Source of the DNA: Malacoraja senta
Lineage: Eukaryota
DNA: 60,000 nt
Reading direction: 5' to 3'
Assembly (NCBI GenBank): GCA_038087875.1
Contig: CM075989.1
Span: 10,418,001-10,478,000, forward strand
Every line of letters begins with the position of its first letter. The first letter of the stretch is position 1. This document shows positions 3,178-50,103 of the stretch, one piece after another. Below the pieces are notes generated by a model, which made no database searches, was not told the DNA's origin, and was given only the letters and a program-made list of their open reading frames with translations. Both the position numbers and the translations under genes were made by a program.

Positions 3178-5734
3178 CTCCAATACTATCATAACCTTTA
3201 TTCAACTAAAACTGTAACACAAACAGAAGGAATAGCAGATTTTTTACTAAAATGTAATTTAAAAGGTTTAGATTCAAATGATAGAGAATTATTAGAAAGG
3301 GAGATTACGATAAAGGATATTGAGGAGTCTATTGGCTCTTTAAAAAATGGTAAAGCAGTAGGACCAGATGGTTTAGGCTCTGAATTTTATAATAAAAATT
3401 ATGACTTGCTCTGCCCACGTTTACAAAGGCTGTATGAGTATATCTATACTCAACAGAAACTTCCAGATACTTTAAATGAATCTATAATAACACTTATTCC
3501 TAAAGCTGATAAAGATCCGTAAGATCCGGGATCATATAGAGCAATTGCAATTTTAAATACAGATCAGAAAATATTAACTAAAATACGAGCGCATAGATTA
3601 AGTACAGTGATGAATAAAATAATACACCCTGACCAAACAGGCTTTATTCAGAAACGGTACTCATATTATAATCTAAGAAGATTATTTAATATTATTTATT
3701 CTAAGAGAATTATTAATGAAGATCTAGCAATAATCTCACTTGACGCTGAAAAAGCATTTGATCAGGTTGAATGGTCTTATTTATTTTCGGTGATGGAAAA
3801 TATGCAACTAGGGGAGAAATTCTGTACATGGATAAAACTGTTATATACAAATCCCACGGCTAGAATACTAACAAACCAAAGGTTGTCATCTAAATTCAGC
3901 CTATCTAGAGGTTGTAGACAAGGATGCCCGTTATCTCCATTATTATTTGCGCTTGCTATTGAGCCACTTGCAGAAAGAGTTAGGGGGCATCCGGAAATAT
4001 ATGGGTATATCACAAAGGACAAAGTGAATAAAATTTCTCTATACGCAGATGACGTACTAATTTACATTACAAAACCAGAAATTAGTATACCAAACTTATT
4101 AGAGCTAATAACCCAATTTGGTTCACTCTCAGGATACAGAATAAATTGGAATAAAAGTGAAATTATGCCAATAAGGGAACATAACAAACAGATAATACAA
4201 CAATTTCCATTTAAAATAGTAAATGACAAATTTAAATACCTAGGTATTTAGGTAACTAAGATATATACATCATTATTTAAAGCAAATTTTCCCCCATTAC
4301 TGAATAAACTACATAAGAATATTCAATACTGGAAAACACTTCCTATCTCAATGGTTGGCAAAATTAATGCCATAAAAATGATTTTTTTACCGCAAATATT
4401 ATACCTTTTTCAGACAATTCCGATATATTTGTCAAAAAACTTTTTTTTTAAATTGGACTCCATTGTTAATGATTTTATCTGGGATTATAAGAATCATAGG
4501 ATAAACAAAAGACATTTGTGTAAATCAAAAATAAATGGAGGTTTAGTTTTACCCAACTTTCTGTTTTATTTTTGGGCAGTTAATATTAAAAATATGAATT
4601 TCTGGTTGGAAGAAATAGATCAACAACCAGATTGGTTAAAAATGGAAAAGGAAGATTGTTTGCCTTTTGATATCGGTTCGATATTATTTGCTACATCTAA
4701 ATTAAACAAAAAAATTTATAGGGAAAACCCTATAATATTTAGTGCCATACGAATTTGGAAACAATTAAAAAAGACATTAAAATTAGATAATTTATCACTT
4801 TTTCTCCCAATTGTGAATAACCCTTTGTTTAAGCCCTCATGGTTGGACAGGGGTTTTACACAATGGAAGAATTATGGAATTAAAAATATGGGACAACTTT
4901 ATAAGGAAGGCACTTTTCTGACATTTCAGGAGTTGCAACAGACTTGTGGACTTCGAGGAAATGATTATTTCAGATATCTTCAACTCAGAGATTATGTAAA
5001 ATCGAATACTCAAAATTTTCGAATTAGAAATTCAGAAATTCTTGACGAATGTTGGAATAAACATCCTAATACAGAAAAATTAATATCTTATATATATAAT
5101 ATCTTATTAGACAGTGACATTCCATCGACGGACTTACACAGACAAACATGGGAAAAAGAATTAAATCAAATAATAACGAAAGATACTTGGGAAGAAAGTT
5201 TACAACACATACATCAATGTTCATTAAATGCCAGACATTCTTTAATACAATTTAAAGTAATACATAGGTTACATTATTCAAAAACAAAATTACATAACAT
5301 CTTTCAACATATCTCACCTATATGTGATAAATGTCAACATTTAGAAGCTACCTTATCTCATGTTTGCAAACTATAAAAATTAAAAAATTCTGGGTAAATA
5401 TTTTTAGTATAATATCTAAAGTGACCAGCACACAAGTGGACCCGGATCCAAAATTAATAATACTCGGAACATTAGAATTAAATCAAACATTTACAACAAC
5501 ACAAAGAAACTTTATTGATTATAGTATAATAACAGGAAAAAAATTAATTCTAAAATTTTAGAAAGGCGCTACGGCCCCCACAATCAAAATGTGGATTATA
5601 GAAATGACGGAGACCTTAAACGTGGAAAGAATCCGATTTTCCCTGTTGGACAAACAGGAATTATTCGTTGGAACATGGTCTCCCTTTATTGATTATTTAA
5701 AGGGTCAGAATGGTTCAGCACAGGAACCTGACTA
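3178..5734 (+). pseudogene. L1 ORF2 remnant (reverse transcriptase and C-terminal Cys-rich region) with in-frame stops and a frameshift
   Basis: ORFs 3607-4251 and 4351-5376 are in one frame, broken by stops near 3520 and 4249; CDKC...SH motif near 5325; frameshift near 5365. Confidence 0.9.
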
Positions 5735-6118
5735 ATGGGCGGGCTAAAGAATGGATGAAATGCTATACTCTGAAATGTATGAATATATCTCGAATGAAGT
5801 TTTTTATTTTAATAAATTTTTCCATTCTTCTTTAACCATCTTTTTTTTTTGTTGTTTTGTTTTTTTTCTTCTTTTTTTTCTGTTTTTTGTTTTTTGTTTT
5901 TTTGTTTTCTCTTTTCTCTTTTTCTTCTCACTCTTTTCTTTCTTTACTTCATCTATCTTTTTAGTTCTATCTAGTTTAAAAAAAAAAAAAAAGGCAAAAG
6001 GTATTGGAGACAATGTAATAATAATTGATAATATCAATTTAAAAATGTAAGACTGTAATGATGTTAATAGGTTGTGTACTTTTCTCCAATAAAAAATATT
6101 TTCAACAAAAAAAAAAAA
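3178..6118 (+). mobile_element. 5'-truncated L1-clade LINE
   Basis: 15-bp TSD AGAAGACATGAAAGT (3163-3177 and 6119-6133) at a TT|AGAA site; AATAAA at 6088 then poly(A); RT motifs QTGF, SLDAEKAFD, GCRQGCPLSPLLF, YADD, KYLGI. Confidence 0.95.
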
Positions 6119-7239
6119 AGAAGACATGAAAGTAAAGCATATAATTAGTTAGTTACCTAATTGTAGCTAATTACAAAATTCAATTACTAGATCTAAACAT
6201 CTATCAATTTCTTAAGAATAGATTAACATTTTTAAATAGCCTAAGTGTCCAAATAACATTCACACAATAATTCACAATATAACATAATTTTTAAATCTCA
6301 TTTTCATGAATTTACAGGCCAAATGGAACGAATTGAATGTTTAATACCTGTAAATTAATGGGCATTTAAATCATCTTGCGAGTGAGGATTTCTGGAACGC
6401 GATCATTTGGAACGTTCATTTGCGGTGAATTTAACCCCGTATTGGCATGAAAAATACTGCCATTAGTTCGGGGATTAAATCACCGTGTCGCATGAAAAAA
6501 TGTGAATTAAAGGCTTCTTAAGAAGCACTTTTATACATTTAAAGAAACCACTTTCGTTTACCTGTCCCGTGTGTGAAATCCGTCCCCGTTATCGGCGTTG
6601 ACGCTTCAGGAGCTGCTTTTAAAATTACTCTAGCGCTGACATTGACGATTTAATAAAAATAAAAAATTCACAAAACGCCACTAGGAACGATTTTTCAGCA
6701 AAAGGTTGTACTCCAACGAAATATAATTCAGGACAAGGGAGGAGAAACCGCGTTTTAACCCCGCCCCCCCCTTAAAGGCGCCAAAATCGTGCACACGGCC
6801 AGTGGCAGAATTACAGCGCGACTGAAGGTAAGTTTTGTAACATACCTACTTATGGTATGAATTGTTGATCAGACATAAAGAAGCCTCCAAGGACATCTCC
6901 AAGCTTCCATAGAATCCTTCTCATCTATTCAAACAGCATTTGGGGATCAGTTCAGTTAATAAATAAATGGCAGTGCTTCTGCCAACATAGTTGTATGTAT
7001 TAAGCAGTTAAAGCAAGTGAATCATTCTTGTGTGTTATACTCAAACTAGCAACTCTAATGCTGCAATCCTTGCCTTTTGTGGAGCCAAATGTTCACCTAA
7101 AGCTAAAGCATAAAGACCAAGCAAATAGACAAATCACCAGATCAGAAGTGCGCTTGACTTATTTTATGATGTTTTCTGAACATATTATGAACATATTCGT
7201 TTAGTCCTTGCCTGACACTGTGCTTGTGTTTAAAAGGTA

Positions 7240-9375: not shown

Positions 9376-9809
9376 TATTTCTTGCATCCCTATCAACTCC
9401 CCTTTTGACTCTTTTGTCACTTATCTAAATAGAGGGGCAATATCAAGTAGCAATTTATCCAAATATCTTTAGACTATGAAGAACAGAGTATTCGTCAGAA
9501 ACTCCAGTGAGTATGGGAAAAACGTGCAACCTCCATGTAGACAATATCCGAGATAATGATTGAACTGGAGCTGTAAGGCAGCAGCACCAACTGTACATTA
9601 CTATAACCCTGATGAAAGAGTTATAGTGGAGGAGGGAGTCTGATGTGGGAGAAAAGTACAACCTTGCTCTCTGCCCCACCCTCTTTAGTGGCAGCCATGC
9701 CATACCTGATCGCTTCTGGGGCTTTTGGCTAAGATCGAGTGTAGGTGATAAGATCAAGTATATTGTGGACACGCATCTGTGAGAAGAGATGAGACGGAAG
9801 GAGAAATAC

Positions 9810-12800
9810 TAGAAAGGCTCTTCATGAGCAATGGCTGCCTGATGAGAGCACAACTAGAGAATGTAGAGATGGATGCATGTTGATTGGGAGACCAATCTAA
9901 CTTTTTCTAGCTTAAAGATCTGCTTTCACTGGCTCTACCAGAATGGCTGCTGTTACGAGTGCCCTGGGAAGACATGGGATTTGCAACTCGGTCAAGGTGT
10001 CGGTGAAAGGCCTCAGCAAGAAGGAACCCCTTCACCAGAGATCTTTACATTAGGAAGGACCTACTGGAAACCGACAAGTTTGAACCCAAGAATAATCTAC
10101 TGGCTTCATGATTTCCTGGATCACAGACACTGTCCCGAGGTGTCGCGTAGTAGAGGTTTTCCTGAGGTGCCGCGCGGCAGTGGGCTCAGTGGGCCGAAGG
10201 CTTGGCAGTAGGCAGGACCCGCCCAAAAGCTCAGCGGTCAGCGGGACAGGGTACCCGCCTAGAGGCTCGTAGGACAGCATATTCGGGAGGGAGCTGGAGA
10301 CATCGATGCGAAGAGCAAGGGCCGGTAGGAGGGTGAACCAGATTAATACCTCCAGCGCTTTTATGGCCAGCTGCAGGAGGCATCCAAAGGCTCGGCGGGA
10401 CCGCCTGTAGATTTGACAGTCTGCAGGACCCGCCCGAAGGCTCGTCGAACGGTGTAACTGGGAGGGAGCTGGAGACGCAAGGAGCATGGGCCTGTAGGAG
10501 GGTGAACCGGAGTAATGCCTCCATCGCCTTCAAGGCAGGAGGTGCCCTGTGACACAAAGATGGCTGGATGAGGAGAGGAGAGGGATGTTGGTTCGTGGGA
10601 ACTGCTCCAGTACCTAGAACGTGCGGGCCAACCGGACTTTTGGACTTTGAATAATGGCGTCAATAATGTTGATGCCAGCATGTGTAATAAATGCAAAAAT
10701 AATTTTCACTGTACAGCTGCATATGTGACAAATAAAGCACCGTTAAACCATTGAACTTTGATGTTACCTTCAAGAACCTATAGGGATGACAGACGTTGCT
10801 CCAGGACTTTTGGGACAAGGTGAATGAAGCTGTACTACAGATGCTCTTCATGAGCAATGGCTGCCTGATGGGAGCACAACTTGAAAATGTAATGATGGAT
10901 CCTTGTTGATTGTGGACCAATCTAACACCTCATTCCAGCCTAAAGATTGGCTGTCATTTGCTCCACCAGAATGGCTGCAGCTATGAGTGCCCTGGGAAGA
11001 CATGGGATTTGATGGTGAAAGGACTCAGTGAGGGGGAACCCCTTCACCAGGAAGGTCCCACTGGAAACCTACAAGTTTGAGGCAAAGAATATCTACTGCC
11101 CACAGGACTTCCTGGGTCACCGACACCATCTTGAGGTGCCTCGCCGTGGATGGCTCGAAGGTCAACGGGGCACGGAAAACGGCCAAAGGATAGTCGGTCG
11201 TTGGAGCCTGCCCGAAGGCATGTCAGTCAGTGGGATTGGGAACTCGGCAGTAGGCTCCTCGGTCGTCTGGGCCCGCACGAAGGCTTGTCAGTCATCGGGA
11301 CTGGGAAGCCACCCGATGGCTTGGCGCGACCGCCCGAAGACTCTAAGGTCAGCGGGATCTGCCCGAAGGCTTGACAGTCGGCCGGACATGCCCGAAACCT
11401 TGTTGGATGGCGTAACAGGGAGGGAGCTGGAGGGGTCAGATGCGAGGAGCAAGGGCCCGTAGGACGGTGAACCGGGGTAATGCCTTCACGCCTTCAAGGT
11501 CGTCTGCAGGAGGTGCCCCGGGAAACAATGATGGCCGGACGAGGAGAGAAGAGGGATGTTGGTTCATGAAAACTGCTCCAGTACATCAAGCGCGCAGGCT
11601 GACTGGACTTTGAATAATGGCATCAAAAATGGTGGCACCAGCATATGTAACATATGCAAAATGAATTTTACTGTGCAGTTGCACATGTGACAAATAAAGC
11701 ACCATTGAACTTTGACGTTACCTTCAAGCACCAAGCAGGATGGCAGATGTTGCTCCAGGACTTCTAGGAGAAGGGGAATGAAACTATACCAGAAAGGCTC
11801 TTCATGAGCAATGGCTGCCTGATGAGAGCACAACTTGAAAATATAGAAATGGATCCATGCTGATTGTGGGACCAATCTAACACGACGTTCCAGTTTAAAG
11901 ATCGGCTCTCACTTGCTCCACCAGAATGGCTACAGTTATGAGTGCACCTATGAGTGCCAATGTCAGTCGGCGGAACGAGGAACCCGCTCAAAGGCTTGGT
12001 GGGACCGCCCAAAGGCTTGTCTGTCGTTGGTGACCGCCCAAATGCTCATCAGTCGTCGGGGCCTGCCCAAAGGCTCATCAGTTGGCGGGACTGGGAATCC
12101 CCCCTAAAGGCTCGGCAGGACCGCCCGAAGCCTCGACGGTCAGCAGGACCCGCCCGAAGGCTCGTCGGACGGCGTAACTGGGAGGGAGCTGGAGATATCA
12201 GACGCATGGAGCAAGGGGTAATGCCTCCAGCGCCTTCAAGGATGGCTGCAGGAAGTGCCCCCGTGACACAGTGATGGCCAGATGAGGAGAGGAGAGGGAT
12301 GTTGGTTTGTGGGAACTGCTTCAGTACTGGACTTTGAACAATGGTGCCAAAAATAGACTGGGTTACCTACTGGCAACCTACAAGTTTGAGGCCAAGGACA
12401 GCTACTGCCTATAGGTCTTCCTGGGTCACCGACACTTTCCCGAGGTGCTGTGCTATGGAGATCTTCCCGAGTCACTGCGGAGGCATTCCCGAGGTGCCAC
12501 GCGGCGAAAGGCTTGTAGGTCGACAGGGCCTGCATGAAGGCTCGTCCGTCAGTGGGACTGGGAACCCGCCCGAAGGCTCAGCGGGACCCCACCAGTGGCT
12601 CGGCTGGACACACCCAAAGTCTCGGTCGGATCTGCCCGACGTCTCGAAGGTTGGTGGGACTCATCAAAGTCTCAGCGGTCAGCGTAACCGGCCCAAAGTC
12701 TCAGCAGTCGGAGAGAATGGGAACCCGTCTGAAGGCTCGTCAGATGGCGGGATCGGGGACTTGTCCAACGTCTCATCGGACGGCCAAACTGGAAGGGAGC

Positions 12801-14005
12801 TGGAGACGAGGAGCGGCGCGACTTTCGTTTGCAGCGGCCTCTGCAGTCCGTCTGTCTTTTTATTATTTTTGTCTCGTTTTTATGTAGTTTTTTATTTATT
12901 TTTTTGTCGGGGTATGTGTGTGGGGGGGGGGTGGGGTGGAGGTGGGGGGGGGAACTTTGAAATCTTTCCCCTGCACGGGAGACCCGACCTTTTCTTTGTC
13001 GGGTCTCCATTGTCGTTGGGGCTGGGCAACGTGGAGCGGCCTCCAGCAGGAACGACCTGGGGCTCCAGTTGTGGAGCTGCGGACTACTCACCGTCACGGG
13101 GCTGGCCGAGTCCGGAGCGGGTGGAGTTGTGGTGGAGCGCTGCTGCGACCCGACCCCCGGAGATTCGGAGGCTACAACCGCGGGTCTGGCGGACGGCAAC
13201 ACTGGAAGCCCGCGGGTCCCCTGGTGGGAGACCGCTTTTCGGGGCTTCCGCAGCGGCGACTTCTCCCGCCCGAGTTGCGGGGTTGAAGAGCACCTGGAGC
13301 GGGGCTTTATTCCCCCGCGTGGCTTGGAATGGCCGCCGAACTTTGCGGGCGCGCGCCGGGGCTCTAACACCAAGACCCGGTGCGCGACCCTGCATTAACC
13401 GGCGTGGCTTTAATGGCCGCGGGATAATCACCATCGCCCGCCGGGGGCTTTGACTTTGACTCTGACATCGGGGGGGGGGGGAGTGCAGTGGAGAGATACG
13501 TTTTTTTTTTGCCTTCCATCACAGCGTTGTGATGGATGTATGTGTAAATTGTGTTGTGTCTCGGGTCTTCTTCGTTTTGTATTGTATGGCTGCAGAAACG
13601 ACATTTCGTTTGGACCTCAAGGGGTCCAAATGACAAATTTGTCCAAAACACAAATAAATTGAATTGAATTGAATTGAATTGAATTGAATTGGTAGGAGGA
13701 TGAACTGGGGTAATGCCCCCACCTCTTCAAGGTCGGGTGCAGTAGGCGCTCCCAGGATACAAAGCCCCCAAACGAGGAGAGGGACGGGACGTTGGTATGT
13801 GGGAACTGCTCCAGTATATCAAGCACACCGGCCAACCGGACTTTGAATAAATATGCCAAAAATGGTGGCACCAGCATGTGTAATGTATGCAAAAATAATT
13901 TCACTGTGCATCTGCATATGTGACAAATAAAGCACTATTGAAATTTGACGTTACCTTCAATCACCTAGCAGATGTTGCTCCAGGACTTCTGGGAGAAGGA
14001 GAATG
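9810..14005 (+). repeat. Tandem array of a ~1-kb composite unit, 3-4 diverged copies
   Basis: CTCTTCATGAGCAATGGCTGCCTGATG at ~9818, 10844, 11798; GTGACAAATAAAGCAC at ~10725, 11686, 13920; GTTGCTCCAGGACTT at ~10795, 11749, 13974. Confidence 0.9.
12811..13690 (+). mobile_element. GC-rich non-autonomous retroelement with (TTGAA)n tail
   Basis: Collinear with 49240-50103 (gcggcgcgact...ctctgcagtccgtctgtc...gggagacccgacc...aaatgacaa); AATAAA then microsatellite tail; interrupts one array unit. Confidence 0.8.
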
Positions 14006-14229
14006 AAGTTCTGCTGTCACAGTTTAAAAATAAAGCCACTTTTCACCATCACTGCCCAGAAGGAACATGTAATTACAATGCACATGTTTAACCCACACCT
14101 GGCGGTCCTTGAAGTCCTCACCTCTCTGGTTTGTTTCATCGACGGAGCAAGAAGATGGGTGGTCATAAAAATCTGTTTGGGATCTGGATTAGCAAGTGCC
14201 AGGTCAAAGTGAAGCTGAGGGGGGGGGGG

Positions 14230-25079: not shown

Positions 25080-26895
25080 GTGACGAAGTGTACATGCTTA
25101 ATGGGCTACAAATTGAAGTGGAGCGGTATATCGCAGGTAACAATGTGTTCCATGTCTCACCCTGATGAGTTCTGCATTCTATGCTTGCTTTGAACAGAAG
25201 GTCAGTGGAATTACGTTATTTACCCCGACAGCCTCAGCTGCAAAGTAGACCAACAGTTGCTGTCGCAGATGTCAGATCGGCCTACCTGGGAGTGAACTCA
25301 GTAAGCAATTGGCCCAGATGGAATTCCCTGCTGTATCGCCAAGACTTATGCTGAGCAGTTGGCAGGAATTTTCACTGGCATCTTTAATCTCACCATGCTC
25401 CATTCTGAATTTCCCACCTGCTTTACGGAGTAACATCCTGGTGCCAAAGAAAAGCAAGGTAGAATGCCTTAATGATTACTGTGGCTCTGACATCCACCAT
25501 CATGAAGTGCATCAAGGTCATATAATAAGCCCTACCAGATATCCTTGATCCATTGCAGTTTGCCTTGTGCAACAGGTTCATACAGATGGCATCTACCTGG
25601 CTCCCACATTCATTGCTGGAACATCTGGATAATAAGGAAGAAAGGTGTCGACCCAAAACGTCGCCCATTCCTTCTCTCCAGAGATGTTACCTCACCTGCT
25701 GAGTTACTCCAGCATTTTGTGTCTACCTTGCGTAAGACTATTGATTGATAGAGATCCACCTTCATCACCATAATTCCAATCAAACTCATCTCCAAATTTT
25801 TGGACCTAGGGGTCATCCCCCTCTGCATTCCTCAACTTCCTGACCCGTAGACCACAATCGGTGAGGAAATTCAACAAAACATCCTCCATGATAATTCCCA
25901 ACACTGGTGCCCGCAAGGATGCATTCTCAGTCTCATGCAATATTCCATTTACACTCATGACTATGTGGCTGATTTCTGCAGATATCACCAGCATATTGCA
26001 TATTGGATTGGATATCGAACAATGAAGAGATGGAGTACAAGAAGGTGATAGAGAGCGAATAACATATCAAGACAATAACCTCTCCCTCAATGTCAGCAAG
26101 ATGAAGGAGCTGATGGTTGACATCAGGAAAGGAGGTGAAGTACATGTCCAAATAAGCTTCAATGGTCCGAAGTGGAGTTGGTCCAAAACCAAGATCCTAC
26201 GTGTAAATATCACCAACAATTTGTCGAGAACAAACCACATTGAAACTATGGCCAAGAAAGCAAACCCATTCCTCTCCTTTCCAAAAGATCTCGAATGTTT
26301 AGCACGTTTCTGATGATTCTTACCAACTTCTGCAGATGCATCATAGAATGCATCCTATCAGGATGATTTGGTGATAGCTGTGCCCAAGATTGCAAGAAAT
26401 TATAGAGAATTGTGGATGTAGCCCAGCTCTTCACTCAGACTAGTTTCCCTCTCCCCACCAACAACTCCATCTGCACTTGAAGCTGTTTTAGAAAAGCAGC
26501 CACCATAATTAAGTTTCATTTATATCCTGGTCATTCCCTCTTCTACCCTCAGAAGGTGCAAAAACTTGAAAGTAGGTATCACCAAATTTGGGAACATCTT
26601 TTCCCCCACTTTCATCAGACTGCTGATTGATCCTATGATAAGCTAACGATGTAGCCTCAATCTCGCAACCTACCTCATTGTGGCCCTCACATTTGTTTTA
26701 TTCTTTACTTTCTCTGTAATTGTATCGTTGTGGCACTCTGTTATTTTTGCAGTTATTTTTCTCTTTACACTACCTGTCTACCTGTTATACTTGTATATGA
26801 CTTGATTGTGCTCATGTATGTGGTTTGACAGTATAGCATGCAAACAAAGCTTTTCACTGTATCTTCGAACATGATAATAATAAACCAATACCAAT
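25080..26895 (+). mobile_element. Decayed Rex1/Babar-type LINE, with a Penelope-derived insert at ~25637-25728
   Basis: ILVPKKSKVECLNDY, LDPLQFA, NTGA.QGC.LS, N.LSLNVSKMKELMVD.RK remnants; tail ttttcactgtatct...atgataataataaacc. Confidence 0.8.
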
Positions 26896-26936
26896 ACTAA
26901 CACCACAGTCACACTCAGTGACAGTCAGGCTTAAAA

Positions 26937-27540
26937 TGATAAAGTTTGCTCCTAAAAACAGACAACAACACAAATGGTTAAAGGAAAACGAAGCCAATCT
27001 TTAATCGATCGTCAGACGGGAGTTGTGGAGTACACAACTTTGTCCAAATGTTCCCCGGGTTTCCACTCTCCGAACAAAGGAAGGTTAGTACAGTTATACT
27101 TATTTCCTATCAATAAAACACTCCTATCAAGTTTGAATATGGCATGACTGAAAGATTCTACAGCCTTTCAGAATACAAGAAAAGCTGGGTCTACATCAGG
27201 CTCCTCCAATAACAGGTTATTGCTTATCTTTGCAATGTCAGCTATATTTTGCAATCATGGCTCATAGTCCTTCTTCATGGCCTTGGACAAGCATATGTTG
27301 TTACTGCAAGCTTCCATCTTAATTTCTATATCAAAATGACAACTTTTTACTCCGTTTTGTGTTCTACATAATATCTGCAAAGTCAGCAACATTATACAGA
27401 CTTGGCACGGAGTCACTCTATTGTCCTTCATCAGACCATGCGTTCTTAGTTTCCATCTAAATTAGTAAGAAGAACGACTCCATTCTGTGAATTCTATTAG
27501 ATTTGACTGTATTAATTCTTTCATTCCCTCCTTTTTATCA
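26937..27540 (-). mobile_element. Probable solo LTR (604 bp)
   Basis: TGATAAA...TTTATCA perfect 7-bp inverted termini (TG..CA); 5-bp flanks TAAAA/TAACA; minus-strand ATTAAA (plus tttaat 27000-27005) ~65 nt from the minus 3' end. Confidence 0.6.
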
Positions 27541-28599
27541 TAACATGAAAACATTCACAGTCCTCAGTAGGTACACAATGCTCGCAAGCATTTAATAATA
27601 AAGAATAGAGCAATGATTAACAGAAAGATAAAACCATAATGTATCACAGTATCCCAAAGTCCACCGACCCAACTGTAACGCCACTTCATGATAAATTGGA
27701 ATCTTTGCCCCATGACCAAACCACGTGGAAAAGGATTACCTGGAAGGCACTGAAAATCGAAATCTCATCAGGAGCAGGTGAAAGTCATGGGATTATGGAG
27801 AATTACAACACAGAAGTAGGTTATTCGGCCCATTACACCCGAAAAGACAATCTCACCTTCCAGCCTGAGACCGGAAGCTATGCAGGTTATGGTTTTTCAA
27901 GTACACATCCAAGTACTGTTTACTGATGAGGGATTTTTTTTTTCCTATCTTTTGAAGCATAAAACATCTACCCCTTTCAGTTTGCTCTACCATTGACTAA
28001 CATCTTTTACCTTGGCTTGATTTTCTTTAACTATCCCAATAACCTTTGATTTTGTTAATATCCATAACCTATTGACATTTGTTTTGAATGACTGCCCTCC
28101 AAGGTTGAGAATTGTACAGTCACCACCCTCTGAAGATTTTTTTCTCATTTTGTTCTGAGACTGACCCTGGTTCTAGACCCCTCAGTCAGGCTGTCTAGCC
28201 CTGTAAGAATTATCAATGTTTTGATGGGATCATGTTTTATTTTTCTAAAGTCTGCTCGAGGTTGCCTTTGCTTTTTCCCTCCTTTGCTAATCCATTGGGT
28301 TGCCCTTTCTTGGTGTTCCTTGCTCTCCTAATCCCACTCAACTTGTGTCTTTCTCTAGATCTTATCCCATCTCCAGGCTTCCCTATTTAACTTAATTTTG
28401 CCCATGAGAATTTGAGGAGAGATTTGCGGAGGTTGTGGCTGAAAATAACACATGTCTAGAGAAAAAGGGAAGGAGGAAAAGGCCAAATTGGTCAGCACAG
28501 AGTTTGGATCATGGGAATTGTAAGGAAGAGTGAAGTCTGGATGGAAATATGAAAATGACATTGAGGAAAATGTAAACATTGGAACTCCAGCAAGCTGAG

Positions 28600-29290
28600 G
28601 TGGCTAAGCACGCGGACTGGCCCGATTAAAGTCCGTTCACTAATGATAAGGGGGGAGGACGTTATTACCTAGGATGGGGACATCTGGTATGATAACCACA
28701 GCGGAAAACAGGCAGTGGATCAGGGTCCCTACCTTTCCCCACCGACAGGCTTACGACCCCCACCCCCAATTGTCCACTCCTCCCAAGGCGGGGGCAGTGG
28801 CACTTAAGACAATGGGCCCTAATTATGTCCTTGTATGATAATGATTGGAATAATGAGAGTCCTGAGGACTGTGACTTTACTACCTCCCTCCTTTCTTATT
28901 TGGTTGAGACTGGCGCCTGGCATCAAGGGGGTGGCACTCCCGCTCTTGGGACTGACAGTTAAGGAATCTATAGGGACAGCCCTCAGTGCACTCGAGGGGT
29001 TGGACCATTTGATTGACCACGCCTCCTCGAGGCGACAAGTGAGGAGAATAGATGTTTCCATTCCCAGACCAGGGGGTGGAGCTAAGGGGCATCGATCCAG
29101 ATAGGAACTGTTTCTGGCCCTCCTCAGAGCAGGAGTGGATAAGGAACAGATAAACGGCGTTCCCACTAGCACCCTCTTTGTCCTTTGGGAAATACATTGT
29201 GAGAAAAAGGGGAATCATGGGCAGGATGAAGAAAACCCGGACCAAGACGAGAGCCCCCGGGAACGGAACGTGCTGGTTCCCCTAGACGAG
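28600..29290 (+). pseudogene. gag: ERV-L-like gag remnant
   Basis: IKVRSLMIRGEDVIT*DGDIWYD (28625-28693; cf. ERV-L KVRALIGKEWDPxTWxGDVWED) and ELFLALLRAGVDKEQINGVPTSTLFVLW (cf. LWxWLIxHGVPxxEIDxKPTxxLLxLY). Confidence 0.75.
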
Positions 29291-30480
29291 GGAAGTGGCC
29301 AGGGTCCCTTATCGGGTTTTATGGTGGCCCTTGCTCGACCGGGCGACCCTTGGCCTTATGCCCCTGTTACCCTCCCCGATGGTGTCGCTGTGTCCCACTA
29401 CATGCCTGAGAGGATGGTGGAACAGGCACTCCCGCTAGCTTTATGGCGGGAGAATGTCTCTTCTGAATTGCAGGTGTCGGCTACTCCTTGTGAGGAGGAG
29501 TGGAGTCTGTGGCAACAGCATGACGGACGGCGGACGAGTCTCTGCTTCTGGACAAAGACATTGCCTGATCCCGCCGCGCGATATTCGCCCTTTGAACTAC
29601 AGTTATTTGCATGTTACTTGGCACTCCTTGCTACCGAACACCTTATGGCGGGTGGGATAGTGGTTATGCGCCCTCTCTTACCTGTTATGACCTGGGTTAA
29701 GTCCGCCAATGTCTCCCATAAGGAGGAACACGCACAGCTCTCCTCTATTGTAAAATGGAAATGGTACATCTCTGATAGGGCTGAGAGAGGCCCCGAAGAT
29801 GTTAGCCGTCTGCATGAGGAGGTCATGGTCCTCCCTTTGTCCGATGACAATACTTCAGTCCGACTGTACACCGAATCCTGGGCAGTTGCCAACGGTATGG
29901 CTGTGTGGATGACACAGTGTCAGTCTCAGGGGTGGGGGATACATGGTCTGCACCAGCTAATGGCCGTGTATGGCACCACATGGGAGATTCAGTCTGAAAA
30001 CAGGTCCCACTTTACCGGTCACAAAGTATAACAGTGGGCAGTTAATAACGAGGTGCAGTGAACCCTCCGCATCTCGTATTACCCGCAAGCAGCAACGCTG
30101 GTGGAGCGTATGAATGGTCTACTAAAAAAGCAGATATGTACACTAACCTCCTCCCATACGCTCAAGGGGTAGGCCCTTGTGTTACAGCAAGCAGTAAACA
30201 ACTTGAACCAATGGCCTTTGGCAGGGGGAAACACCCATGAGCTGACATCTGGCTGTTGCAGTCAGGCCATATGACGCCACACCGACAAAAGAACATCAGG
30301 AAGACGCCCGGAAGGTGTGGGTTTCGGTCCCCGGTGGGGGACCCCCTCGCAAGGGGGAAGATGGACCCCCTCGCAAGGGGGAAGATTGCCGCAGCGCAGG
30401 GCAATACGCAGTGGCTTTTGGTGACCGGGGAGGATAAACCTAGATGTCTACCTTTACAGCACTTAACCAGGCGAGAGTGA
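29291..30480 (+). pseudogene. pol: ERV-L-like pro-pol remnant (PR start, RT sliver, tether, RNase H sliver, integrase)
   Basis: FWTKTLPDPAARYSPFELQLFACYLALLATEHL...RPLLPVMTWV...HAQLSSIVKWKWYISDRAERGPEDVSRLHEEV; LYTESWAVANGMAVW; IQSENRSHFT; YYPQAATLVERMNGLLKKQ. Confidence 0.9.
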
Positions 30481-30511
30481 GCCTGCTCCGTCTTCTCACT
30501 ACAGAACAATC

Positions 30512-30855
30512 ATGAGGCACTTCATGTGTATCGGACGATGGCATGGGCTGATACTTCTGGCAGTGCTGGCTGCTGCATCACCTGTCTGCACGGAATCAAA
30601 CACCTATCGCTTGCTCCTGCATGCGTACCTACATAAACTGATTTTGTGCGCTTGTCCCACATCACTGACAACAGGACCACTCTCGGGCTAGTAGAGGCAG
30701 GGCAGGCTATCCAAGCCCTGAGTGCTGAAATGGTGGCAATACGAACTGATCTTGGGAGTTTGGAGCTTGTGGGCATATGCCATGGCTGGTGACAGGGCTT
30801 GTTTTGGTGGTGGCATAATATTCTGCAATTGTGTGCTTCCTTACTGCCGTGTGAG
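30512..30855 (+). pseudogene. env: env remnant (signal peptide, heptad fragment, membrane anchor)
   Basis: Acceptor ctccgtcttctcactacag| at 30504; ATG 30512 MRHFMCIGRWHGLILLAVLAAASPVCTESNTY; then AGQAIQALSAEMVAIR; then WLVTGLVLVVA*YSAIVCFL in other frames. Confidence 0.6.
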
Positions 30856-31243
30856 GAGTACCAAGAGAGTGAAGGGGTGGTATTGAGCCTGTGGGCCGAA
30901 TGTAACGGGATTTGGGGTGTATGTGGTTAAGGTGAGGTGAAATTGTGTTCAAAACACCACTTTGCATGCTTGGGCTGATTAAAAGGGGCCAGTAAATCAT
31001 GGGGATGCTTGCAAGGCCATTGAGATAAGCTTTGCTTTCACAGAGACATCTGAAACTAGCTCGGTGTCTGATAGAACACATAACTCACGCCTTTATGGCA
31101 TGGATAGTTAGTTTGACACATAATCATCTCACATTCATAGAGATATAATTATTACACTGTACTTTTGATTATTATTGTTTGTATACTCATTAACATGTAG
31201 TTAGATGGACGCTAATGTAGACTGATGACTCCAAGGGTTGGAG

Positions 31244-31829
31244 TGTAGTGTAAGGGTTAGAGTGTAGTGTAAGGGTTGGAGTGTAGTGTAAGGGTTGAAC
31301 TAACAATTTCAGCTAAAATGTGAAATGGAGTTATCAGCTTAATTAGCAGCCATACATTCCACAGTCTACGAAAACAAGTTTATATCCTCGCACCTGCGAT
31401 CAGTGCATGGGAAAGGCTGCATTGGCGAACAAAATGTTTGAGTAGATGTTCCCAAACAATGTCTGGTTGAGCTGAGCAAAACAACAGCAATAGTTGGGTA
31501 GATCACCTGTGCCCCCTGCCGCAAGCACAGAAACGTTGCCGACAAGGAGGGCTTATGATTGGCTCGGGGAGGGGGCAGTGGCACGGTCTGCTCTGATAAG
31601 AATTGCCATAAAGATTGGTGTTGGGCGCCCTTTTGGGGAGAGAACCTCAGCCGTGGACTGTCGCGAACGGTGCCAGGTGATCTTGAACGAAACATCCTGT
31701 GGCGTGCTTTGCGAGTGCGTTCAGGGATATTCGGGGATACGGGAGTGTATGTGCCTTATTTAGGAGTGTAATTAAATACTGAGTGAAACAAAACTGTTAT
31801 CTGAATCCAGTGATTTATCAAACACAACG
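31244..31829 (+). repeat. 3' LTR of the ERV
   Basis: Begins TGTAGTGT after the PPT-like tract; three ATTGG (reverse CCAAT) boxes; TGATAAG TATA-like box near 31594; ATTAAA near 31771; ends ACACAACG, an imperfect inverted repeat of the start. Confidence 0.65.
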
Positions 31830-32189
31830 TGTGTCAGGGAGGACCAGTGTGATGGATTAATATGACATTGGTGAGGCAAGGCGTATTAGATTGTGGAGAG
31901 TCCAATTTGCAAAGGAATAAATGAATCTTGTAAGTGGTTACTAGACTAAACCCCCAAATTGTTGTTTCATATTCCAGCTGAGACTTGAGAAATACTGTCG
32001 TCTCAAGAAGATCTGACTTTTAAAATATTCGTTTACATGATTTGAATGTAAGCATTTAAGAATGATAGCATTTATAGTTCAACCCTAATTGCGTTTCAGG
32101 AGGTGATTTTGAGCCATCTTCTTTGACTGCTGCAGTCTTCCTAGTAAATGTACACTCGTAGTGCGGATGGGGAGAACGTTTCGGGATAT

Positions 32190-33045
32190 CGATATAGTGA
32201 TGTTTTCCCCAGTGAATCTTAATAACTTCTACAGATGCACTGTAGAAAACATCCTATTGGGTGCTTCCCAACTTGGTTCAGCAAATGCTCTGCCCAAGAC
32301 CGCAAGAAACCGCAGAGAGTTGTCAAGAGTGTTTTATTGTCACATGTCCCAGATGGAACAATGAAATGAGAAAAAAAGTTCAGTGTATACACATAACAAA
32401 CAATAATAGTGCAATAATAACAATCATAGTCTATGTTGTTCAGAGCTCATGAGGTTGTAGTGTTTAATAGCCTAATGGCTGTAGGGAAGAAGCTGTTCCT
32501 GAACCTGGACGTTACAGTTTTCAGGTTCCTATACCTTCTTCCCGATGGCAGGGGTGAAATGAGTGTGTGGCCAGGGTGGTGTAGGTCTTTGATGATGCAG
32601 TCCAGTCGATCTCGCAAACCAGGCTCCCCCACATTGACTCCATCTATACTTGATGCTGCCTGGGCAAAGTGGCCAACATAATCAAGGACTTCAGTCATTT
32701 CCTCTTCTCCCTCAGTCGTCCAGAAGAGAATACAAAATCTTAAAAGCATGTACCATCAGATTCAGGAACAGCTTCTTCCCCACTGTTATCAGGCTATCGA
32801 CAACCTCTCATAAGCTAGCCCTGAGCTCTCAACCTATCTAATTGCTACCCTTGCACCTTTTCTTTTATCTGCATTCTCACTGTAGCTATGGCTATATTCT
32901 GCACTCTGGTTATTATCCTCTTTGGACTACTTGTAACTGTGCACAGATTGATTGTACTCCATGTAATGTTTTGACTGGATAGCACACAAACCGGGTTTTT
33001 CCACTGTGTCTTGGTTTACATGACAATAATAATCCAATACCAATA
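32190..33045 (+). mobile_element. Rex1/Babar 3' remnant with an inverted Rex-type 3' piece at ~32322-32600
   Basis: NFYRCTVENIL; TIRFRNSFFPTVIRL; minus-strand LPSGRRYRNLKTVTSRFRNSFFPTAIRLLN. Confidence 0.8.
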
Positions 33046-33639
33046 TTAATGATGATGAAGGAATGGTAATATGTTTCCAAGTCAGGATTATGTACGACTT
33101 GGAGTGGATCCTGCATGTGGCAGTGTTTTCCTGTACCTGTGGCACTGTTGAGCATGACAGTTCCTTTTGGCGCATTAATTAATTTTGTTACCAAAAATTT
33201 GTTACAGCTTTGTGTTTTATTCTCTCTTCTTGCTGCCTCTGACAGATTCCTCACCTTCCCTTTGAAACGGATGGCTCCTTGCAGGATTTTGTTGACACTG
33301 CTCTGCAACTTTTCAAATGTTTTCCTTCATTAACCAGCTCTGAAATTGGTTGTAGGTAACTTGACCAAAGTCACAGACAAGGTCAATATCTCTTCAGCAA
33401 AAGAAAAGCCGCCAGAAGAACACAGTAGGTCAGACAGTATTTGCCAGACCTAATGCAAGGTCTAAACGTGAAAGACGATTATCCTTTTGCCTCCACAAAT
33501 GTTGTCTGACCTGCTGAGTTCTTCTAGCAACTTGATTTTTTACTCTGGAGTTACAACATCTTCCACCTCTAGTGTCTCAATTTATCATCTTTCACCACTA
33601 TGCGCATGTTATGCAAACACATGCCACAGATGCACCATA

Positions 33640-40509: not shown

Positions 40510-41085
40510 ATGCACAAGAGCAACTTCGAGTAGTGCCACTTGTAGATAGGGTGGTGAGGAAGACTTTTGGCATGCTGGCCTTCCTCAGTCGGGAAACCCA
40601 GTATTAAAATTGGGAAGTTATATTTACAAGATGTTGATGAGACCATACTTAGGATATTTGGATAAAGTTTTTGTCACCCTGCTACAGGAAAGATTCCATT
40701 ACGCTGAAAAAAAGTGCAGAAAAATTAATGAGGATGTTTCCGGGATTTGAGAGTGAGCTATAGGGAGAGGCAGGCTAAGATTTTATTCCTTGGAGCTGAA
40801 GGCTGAGCGGTGATCTTATGGAGATGTGTGAAAACATGAGGGGAATAGATGAGGTAAATGCACAGAGTATTTTTTACAAGGATGAGGGAATCAATAAGTA
40901 GAGGGTATAGGTTTGAGGTGAGAGGGGAAAGTTTTAATAGGAAACCGGAGTGACAGTTTTTTAACGCAGACAGTTTTGGATTATGGATCAAGCTGCCAGT
41001 TGAAGCAGGTACAACAACGACATTGAAAGGACCATTTGTGAAGGTACATGGGCAGGAATGATTTATAATTGTGCTGAATGGCCGG
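40510..41085 (+). mobile_element. Decayed CR1 3' end
   Basis: gtagatagggtggtgaggaag.cttttggcatgctggccttc...tgagctatagggagagg...aaagttttaataggaa. Confidence 0.8.
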
Positions 41086-42658
41086 TTTCTATTACTATGA
41101 GTGCGATGGGGACCATTGCCCAAGCCGTAATGAGATGGGCAGAGCATTGCATACATTGAATAAAAGTGAAAAAAAATTGCAAAGCAAGTTCAAGTGTCTG
41201 GAGTGTCTGGTGTCTATTATGCAGAAAGCTGCTGAGGTAAACTCTGGGGAGATGTGGTGCCAAGTTGGACTGGGGAGTTGCCACTCCAGCCGTTCCAATT
41301 ACAACCACACCCAGGCTGGGACTGCCAGGGACACAGCTCTTCAGCAGACACTGCTACTGAACAGATGTTTGGGCTATGTTCATTGTAGAGTTTGCCTTAA
41401 AGGATCCATTACAATAGACTCAAAGAAGATGCTTCCACTTTGGATGGTGTGTGGGGAGTGGTGGAATATTCCAATGAGGATGGTGCAGGAGGTGAATACA
41501 AATAAACAAACATAAATTTTAATAATATAAATTTTAATAATTTTACAATAATATTTGATTTGCGCTCTAGATATGTTCTGAGAAAATTGAGTGCTAAACG
41601 TGATAGTTTTACATGGGTCATTGTAACATAGCATAAATGGAGATGTGACCCTGGGAAGTTATTTTTAACTTCCTTATTGTTTACTGCTGCTAACTCTATA
41701 CGTGTTTCCACAATGTTTACTTCTGATGTTTACCCGTTTATTCCATCTCCATTCATGGCTCCAGAATAAAATGTGTTGTGAAACAACGGACACCCGATTC
41801 CCCGACCGGAGCTTTGATTTCCCTCCCCCGCAGAGTTATTGCGTTAGATTTAGAATCCAATGTCACATGAATGTGATTCCAGCATGACTCAAGTCTTTTT
41901 ACAAATCAGGGTTGCTTTTGGCGAGGTCTACCCGCTTCTTACAGGCAGACGGATTCTGGGAGCAAGTTGGATTGAACTTTTTCTCTGCTTTGTTGTAGTG
42001 TGCGTGAGAGATAGAGAGGGGCACAGGAGGGAGTCAACTGGATTCAAGGATGAGTTCCAGAGAAAAGTTGAAGTCTTTCTTGGGCTCTTTACACTCCTTG
42101 TTAGACAAATGCAGAAGAAGTCCTCTAGATCAACTGTCACCTATATTAAGGTGTTGACATATGAAGAAAGGTTGAGCATATTAGGCCCATATTCAAGTTT
42201 AGAAGAATGAGAGATGATCATATTGAAACATACAAGATTTTAAAGAGAATTGACAGGGTGAATGTTGAGAAGTTGTTTTCTCTGGTATTCCATTTCTGAG
42301 TCTTGTATGTGTTACCAATCTTGTGACTCTGACTCTGACTTTGTCAATATTGCCTTTCTTTAGTTTTCTCGGCACATTTGCTATCTTTGCCGTCCCTATA
42401 CTCCCATCAAAGATCGAAAACAGGCTTTAATAAACTCATTTGGGTACAAAGGTAATGATACATTAATTGCTTTGTTATGCTGAAATCAGTGGTAGAGTCT
42501 GGCATAGTGTGGTATTTAGCAAGAAGATGACCATTTAAATCTAGAGAAACTGAAATTGAATGCATTCTTTGAAGCTCCTCTTAACACCCATATACAGTAT
42601 CTCCATGGTTTTATTGAATGTGAGATATTAACCGAGGAGTCAGTCAATGTGTGATGTT

Positions 42659-49239: not shown

Positions 49240-50103
49240 GTATACGTTGGTTGGCGGCGCGACTCACGTTGCAGCAGCCTCTGCAGTCCGTCTGTCTTTT
49301 TTATTTTTTTTGTTTCGTTTGAGTTTTGTATAGTGTTTTTTTATTTTTAATTTTTAACTGGGTATGTGTGGGGGGGCGTGGGGCGGGGGTGGGGAAACTT
49401 TTAAAATCTTTTCCCTGCACGGGAGACCCGACCTTTCTCTGTCGGGTCTCCGTTGTCGTTGGGGCCTAGCACCGTGGAGCGGCCTCCAACCGGAATGACC
49501 TGGGGCTCCAGTCGCGGAGCCTGAGGACTACTCACCATCGTGGAGCTGGCCGAGTTCGGAGCGGGAGGAGCTGTGGTGGCGCGCTGCTGCTACCCGACCC
49601 CGGAGATTCGGAGGCTTCAGCCACAGGTCTGATGGATGGTAACATCGGGAGCTCGCGGGTCCATGGTGGGAGACCGCTTTTCGGGGCTCCCGCAACGGCA
49701 GCTACTCCCGCCCGATTTGCGGGGTTGAGGATGACCTGGAGCGGGGTCTGGCATCGCCCGGCGCGGCATTGGTGGCCGTGGGACTTACTGGCGCTACCGG
49801 GGGTATACAACATCAAGACCTGGAGCGTGGCCTTGCATCGCCCGGCGCGGCTTTAATGGCCGCGGGACATATCTACAATCGCCCGCCGGGGGCTTTGACT
49901 TTGACATCGGGAGGAGAATGTGGAGTGCAGGGGAGAGATAAGACTTTGCCTTCGATCACAGTGAGGAGGAGATTCACTGTGATGGATGTTTGTGTAAATT
50001 GTGTTGTGTCTTGGTTCTTTTTACTTGTTTGTATGACTGCAGAAACAGAATTTCGTTTGAACTTAGGTTCAAATGACAACAAATAAATATCTATCTATCT
50101 ATC
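49240..50103 (+). mobile_element. GC-rich non-autonomous retroelement with (TATC)n tail
   Basis: TSD TAACTT (49234-49239 and 50104-50109); same family as 12811-13690. Confidence 0.85.

Follow-up and report, generated by a model that had tools for sequence, protein, structure and literature searches.

We analysed a 60,000-nucleotide stretch of the Malacoraja senta genome (assembly GCA_038087875.1, contig CM075989.1, positions 10,418,001 to 10,478,000 of the forward strand; hereafter the window), whose plus strand carries, up to position 31829, the remnant of an endogenous retrovirus (ERV) with the gene order gag-pro-pol-(env-like)-polypurine tract (PPT)-long terminal repeat (LTR). The element is probably the 3' part of an old insertion of the ERV-L/ERV-S lineage, with deletions that are common to other copies and with a likely history of non-autonomous copying by an intact relative. 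The initial annotation had spoken of a provirus; what lies at the locus is a truncated, internally deleted, one-LTR remnant rather than a provirus with intact genes.

Organization of the element

The retroviral motifs quoted in the initial annotation are real, and all of them lie on the plus strand in frame +2: KVRSL..T*DGDIW at ~28625-28690, the Gag motif GVDKEQINGVPT at ~29132-29167, and the Pol tether block at ~29580-29825, within a stop-free frame that spans 29105-30031. A tblastn comparison of the window with a Gag-Pol protein of the red stingray Hemitrygon akajei (P0002) yields matches of 145 bits (E 2e-37) and 105 bits (E 5e-25), as opposed to a maximum of 25.8 bits in 200 codon-shuffled versions of 28400-31829 (any match in 187 of the 200), and the motifs therefore stand far above chance. 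The span first assigned to the element, 28400..31829, holds on its right side only. At 31829, 6 of 8 bases of the LTR start are matched by the LTR end read in reverse complement, and the depth of other copies, as judged from contigs of four runs from four organisms (4 of 24 listed runs) aligned to 26500-33500, falls past the bin ending at 31881. The left end at 28400 is unsupported: homology to P0002 begins at 28622, and left of ~28600 neither tblastn homology to that protein nor multi-copy contig coverage is found, the bin 28372-28605 having near single-copy depths of 39, 52, 10 and 21 in the four runs versus 1026, 741, 163 and 349 in the next bin. Such summed contig depths are not used here as copy numbers.

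The gag region begins with a piece that contains the DGDIW block (28622..28780, frame +2, with a stop at 28670), which aligns with P0002 residues 159-183 (E 8e-4), can be extended to residue ~202, and also matches the mouse ERV-L-type Gag of reference locus L001. A second piece in frame +1 (28792..28917; P0002 residues ~362-407) follows after the loss of ~160 capsid codons upstream of it, and a third (28913..29290; residues 407-515), with a stop at 29102, runs up to the gag/pol border; no Cys-His box is present in the Gag end as read from the window. As in L001, gag and pro-pol share one frame across the border, where codon 29288-29290 is a sense codon in this copy and a stop in most other aligned copies, in all four runs. 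The long frame 29105-30031 is thus partly an accident of this copy.

What remains of pol is a succession of fragments. The protease start (29291..29368), in which alignment to P0002 stops at residue 557 and the catalytic DTG motif is absent, is followed by an 11-codon scrap of reverse transcriptase (RT) ending at YIDD (29369..29401), for which the YIDD region is the best local match in 11 of 13 references, P0002 itself excepted, with a shuffle p <= 0.025 in 10 of the 13. The tether, or connection, domain (29417..29839) is 51% identical to P0002 residues 963-1103 over 141 aa and matches Pfam RT_RNaseH_2 with an E value of 0.0019, under that family's cut-off. It is succeeded by a short RNase H piece (29855..29947; P0002 residues about 1210-1235) and by the second half of the integrase core (29939..30241), 57% identical to P0002 residues 1402-1502, interrupted by stops at 30029, 30059 and 30170, and devoid of the zinc finger and the first catalytic Asp. 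Beyond a 24-bp tandem duplication (30339..30386), the integrase C-terminal end and the pol stop lie in frame +1 (30385..30480; 55% identity to P0002 residues 1547-1577, E 5e-5). The 29135-30031 peptide, initially taken as one protein, is accordingly pieced together from parts of Gag, tether, RNase H and integrase, along with the protease start and the RT scrap. In all, ~35% of the stingray relative is retained. The window copy has lost the active site of its protease, almost the whole of RT, the greater part of RNase H and one half of the integrase, as well as the 5' LTR and the leader, where the serine tRNA primer-binding site of an ERV-S element would lie. There is also no dUTPase, the gap between the integrase core and the C-terminal block being 144 bp only; this absence, common to the stingray relative, places the element outside ERV-L in the strict sense.

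Frame +2 is kept at all four pol deletion joints, an outcome with a chance of 1/81, which could indicate that an open Gag-plus-truncated-Pol frame was under selection during spread, whether for RNA stability, cis packaging or helper interference. We judge such selection unlikely. The 1/81 figure is post hoc and, once the out-of-frame gag joint is counted, becomes 4 of 5 joints (p about 0.045); a neutral route to the same joints exists, since in-frame deletions can be favoured when the template is switched at microhomology that is in codon phase; the present copy carries seven frame +2 stops within 28600-30241 (28670, 28805, 28820, 29102, 30029, 30059 and 30170); and a search for homologs of the fused frame, restricted to proteins of 169-539 aa, returned none among 1199 candidates.

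The end of pol is separated from the PPT by ~750 bp in the window versus ~140 in L001, and this interval holds a possible, unproven env remnant (30512..30930) that starts with an ATG and a hydrophobic leader (19-residue hydropathy 1.76) and continues with heptad-like and Trp-rich pieces. No match to the 30512-30930 region was obtained in Pfam, PDB, Atlas or pairwise comparisons, blanks that are weak because the sole Env-bearing reference is a chimeric annotation without a usable TM. The region after pol may resemble a shrunken gamma-type env, although of such an env (CXXC, furin site, ISD, CX6CC) it shows a leader-like segment only. At another locus, L009, positions 3276-7170 contain a short class III element of 3.4 kb from LTR to LTR (LTRs 86-88% alike). 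It contains parts of the integrase and a more distinct env remnant, in which a motif like the immunosuppressive domain occurs, and has no DNA similarity to the window element.

The PPT (31233-31243) and the start of the LTR (together 31233..31297) lie inside a 19-bp unit that is repeated 3.4 times through slippage, and both the PPT/LTR border and the TGT start match the borders of the mouse- and chicken-type class III loci L001-L006. The 3' LTR (31244..31829; 548 bp when counted from the last repeat unit at 31282) has an ATTAAA at 31771 and is heavily covered by other copies. Compared with the TGT...ACA ends of class III LTRs described in PMC8278194, its start and PPT match and its end differs at the last base. 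Sensitive blastn detected no second or 5' LTR in the 60-kb window, and six bases at 28345 that recur in the right flank are not regarded as a target-site duplication, there being no LTR at that position and a chance expectation of ~1 such match per 4 kb. To the right, the LTR adjoins host flank (31830..32253), a junction also present in three other organisms; further out, 32320-32800 is an extremely abundant repeat with a summed depth of >1 million in run X1 versus ~30 for unique contigs.

Affiliation with the ERV-L/ERV-S lineage

Judged from its sequence, the element belongs to class III and descends from the ERV-L/ERV-S lineage (clade Huo), as the initial annotation had proposed: its tether and integrase are closest to ERV-L-type Pol, and the similarity of its Pol to class I, foamy and Gypsy elements does not rise above this. 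A search for longer proteins returned one match among 2094 candidates, a 1520-aa red stingray Gag-Pol (E 3e-53) in which the domains of protease, RT, RNase H and integrase are all present. Its cluster includes proteins annotated as 'Friend virus susceptibility protein 1-like'; the Fv1 gene itself originated from an ERV-L Gag. The stingray proteins (XP_072891825.1 and XP_072898008.1; P0001 and P0002) are colinear with the window element through Gag, tether (51%), RNase H, integrase (57%) and the C-terminus and likewise have no dUTPase but, unlike the window, they retain full protease, RT, RNase H and integrase; they are gene predictions, and their stop-free gag/pol border is possibly an annotation effect. 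Several near-intact Gag-Pol copies within 90% identity are present in the red stingray, so the lineage has been recently active in that species.

Over the tether, the window shares 51% of residues with the stingray and 51-54% with ERV-L-type Pol of the mouse, the value for L001-L004 being 54% over 126 aa. Most amphibian and fish relatives reach 44-51%, the Xenopus protein compared 34% and bird class III elements ~30%. The corresponding scores are 146 bits for the stingray, 139 for the mouse ERV-L cluster, mostly 95-140 for amphibian and fish relatives and <=24 for class I rows, two of which were checked and are MLV-like. Frogs, caecilians, lungfish, bichir, killifish and white shark all have ERV-L-like relatives, as do koala and lizards, and the lineage, which the initial annotation had called best known from mammals and other amniotes, is therefore not confined to amniotes.

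The RT tree that had been suggested as a check could be built for the relatives of the element and not for the window itself, which has no RT to place beyond the 11-codon scrap. In this 42-row tree, from which 3 of the 45 rows first selected were excluded because they have no RT, the nearest intact relative, the stingray proxy, whose RT carries YIDD, joins the mouse ERV-L cluster and Xenopus and chicken elements in a clade of 23 rows (96/93), apart from class I. A white-shark protein (P0300) occupies a separate subclade beside killifish, apart from the stingray P0002. The arrangement suggests at least two separate ERV-L-like lineages or invasions in elasmobranchs, which agrees with the host switching described in the literature.

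A Gypsy, epsilon-like or foamy-like identity would accord with the PDB matches of the stingray proxy, the best of which are the RTs of foamy virus (189 bits) and MLV (183 bits). Any class III element whose structure is unsolved should give such matches, and Ty3 reaches 117 bits against the same proxy. The 308-aa window frame gave 0 PDB matches at E <= 1, though foamy, MLV and Ty3 Pol chains were included; and the YIDD of the stingray proxy, a motif at which the RT deletion of the window falls, and the PPT/LTR border, like the class I tether scores, speak for the ERV-L type. We consider a Gypsy, epsilon-like or foamy-like origin extremely unlikely. Scans of viral contigs with P0002 and with an alignment-based query returned nothing, a snakehead retrovirus (SnRV) reference included.

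Copies in other genomes and age of the insertion

The comparison with other copies rests on 32 listed contig pieces of >123,000, from four related organisms that are likely sharks or rays; runs with a small share of matching sequence that were not aligned are outside the counts. Eight of the 32 cross both the tether/RNase H and the RNase H/integrase joints, in 4 of 4 runs and at 84-94% identity, and one of these is an 87% paralog in X1, the run that also contains exact window matches. The 3' pol deletions thus belong to the family and not to this copy alone. Three further pieces of 82-83% identity (records 9 and 10 of X3, record 19 of X4) break off at the tether edges and continue for 104-524 unaligned bases, as expected of less-deleted relatives, which makes them candidates for the helper.

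Alternatively, a once-complete provirus could have decayed in place, with its deletions spread by segmental duplication, gene conversion or single-locus inheritance. The insertion is common by descent to three other organisms, the ortholog may be among the joint-crossing pieces, one of which has 94% identity, and the loss of the 5' end is damage after insertion. On the other hand, several joint-crossing pieces per run stand at 84-88%, under the 91-95% of the orthologous flank, and record 12 of X3 is a joint-crossing piece at ~4x single-copy depth, while the flank bin is near single copy. Decay in place appears improbable to us on these figures.

The junction between LTR and flank is contained in single contigs (31795-32233/32253) of runs X3, X4 and X5, with 35 bases in the LTR, >400 bases of flank, about single-copy depth and 7-9% difference from the window. 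Because this junction is common to the three, the insertion likely predates the split of these organisms. Flank divergence of 5-9% translates into 11-20 Myr if substitutions accrue as in mammals (2.2e-9 per site per year), or into 106-204 Myr with the rate of 2.2e-10 that Han 2015 assumed for sharks; both rates are taken from PMC4422223.

Several observations weigh against the proposed reading of a deleted ERV-L/ERV-S-lineage family copied in trans. With respect to placement, the lead of the stingray over mouse is modest (tether 51% for both, integrase 57% vs 40%); a 24-row tree of window pieces groups window and stingray weakly (SH-aLRT 75, bootstrap 93), and a 29-row tether-only tree leaves window, stingray and mouse in an open fork; and the trees contain no foamy, SnRV, HERV-S or Gypsy rows. 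With respect to spread, the 5' pol joints (protease/RT scrap and RT scrap/tether) are covered by >=31 bases on both sides in one listed piece and at the second joint only. Finally, the short contigs include no deleted copy that is flanked by a pair of LTRs and a target-site duplication, and retrotransposition of the deleted form is for that reason only inferred.

Other features of the window

No host genes were identified within the 60-kb window, and tRNA and Rfam searches of it gave no match. A fragment similar to L1/Tx1 ORF2 (3523-5376) combines RT and zf-RVT-like parts in one frame and, since that frame is broken by a single stop only, appears fairly young. The frame 41078-41515 reads, by eye, as the antisense of a CR1-like piece without a Pfam match above cut-off, and the Atlas returned generic LINE clusters only. 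Tandem and dispersed repeats comprise a 31-bp minisatellite in seven copies (1197-1412), a GC-rich cluster of degenerate ~1-kb units that are 69-85% alike and contain 29-bp sub-repeats (9800-14010), and an 860-bp GC-rich dispersed repeat with two copies 79% alike (12813-13636 and 49254-50079), whose overlapping frame has no Pfam match. The short repeats of the window presumably resemble those of skates and rays. Together with the stingray element as best combined match, which extends to its Gag and its dUTPase-less integrase end, and with the likeness by eye to the Gag of whale-shark Rh_ty_ERV3, they accord with a shark or ray as host; on the sequence evidence, an amphibian, bony fish or amniote host appears improbable.

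Discussion

Among known relatives besides the stingray proteins, MuERV-L and HERV-L, represented here by the mouse cluster (P0175, L001-L004), share with the window element the Gag W-D-G-D block, the tether (54%), the in-frame gag/pol border and the PPT/LTR border. ERV-L differs in having a dUTPase after the integrase and no env; in the window a dUTPase is absent, and the ~750 bp before the PPT may derive from env. The stop at the gag/pol border in most copies is as in MuERV-L and XtERV-S (PMC8278194). With the latter, a class III element with env in frogs according to Yedavalli et al. 2021 (PMC8278194), the window element also has in common the class III gag-pol, the TGT...ACA type of LTR ends and a leader-bearing frame directly after pol; XtERV-S differs in that it has a dUTPase and a gamma-type env, while the window has no dUTPase and its env is unproven.

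Among cartilaginous fishes, the accessible text of Han 2015 (PMC4422223) gives the elephant shark SnRV-like and epsilon-like lineages only. The text of S2 Fig of Xu et al. 2018 (PMC6001957, clade Huo) places the whale-shark element Rh_ty_ERV3 beside killifish No_fu_ERV1, HERVL, Murine_ERVL and HERVS, as far as branching can be gathered from label order. In the first 400 residues of Rh_ty_ERV3 (S2 Data of PMC6001957) a late Gag block is, by eye, as in window 29096-29210; that element has an RT and the window element does not, and the main text of Xu et al. 2018 does not mention Rh_ty_ERV3. The initial annotation had expected the element to inform how old class III retroviruses are or how they spread between classes. 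It adds little in this respect, because the lineage is not confined to amniotes and an elasmobranch member beside HERV-L/MuERV-L was already published in 2018 (PMC6001957). No description of the present deleted family was found in the searched literature, in so far as its texts were accessible, with Dfam, Repbase, most subscription papers and the supplements of bioRxiv 10.1101/2021.11.23.469661 outside the search.

We propose that an infectious or retrotransposing class III ancestor would have lost most of pol during replication, and that the shrunken RNA would have kept its LTRs, PPT and packaging signal, so that a helper could reverse-transcribe and integrate it in trans. The window copy would then have lost its 5' LTR and gained stops and frameshifts. 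Save for a putative promoter or polyadenylation effect of the LTR, the element is likely inert at this site now; none of the listed runs with matching sequence is an RNA data set.

MaLR, ETn and VL30 are non-autonomous LTR elements copied in trans by a helper, in the manner suggested here. The window family is like them in that LTRs and PPT are kept, pol is crippled and copies are many; it differs in its independent origin and in the recognisable scraps of every pol domain that remain. A bolder and rather unlikely version of this comparison would make it an independent elasmobranch counterpart of MaLR, that is, a long-lived non-autonomous family that lost all catalytic sites of pol in four deletions, in which the frame was kept open because Gag-truncated-Pol aided spread or hindered the helper, and which may descend from an env-bearing, dUTPase-less relative of ERV-L.

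The significance of the element is modest: sharks were known to have this lineage, to which an insertion that is common to several species and can be dated, and a likely non-autonomous family, are now added. If the in-frame deletions do reflect selection, the family would show clearly that MaLR-like shrinkage arose convergently outside mammals.

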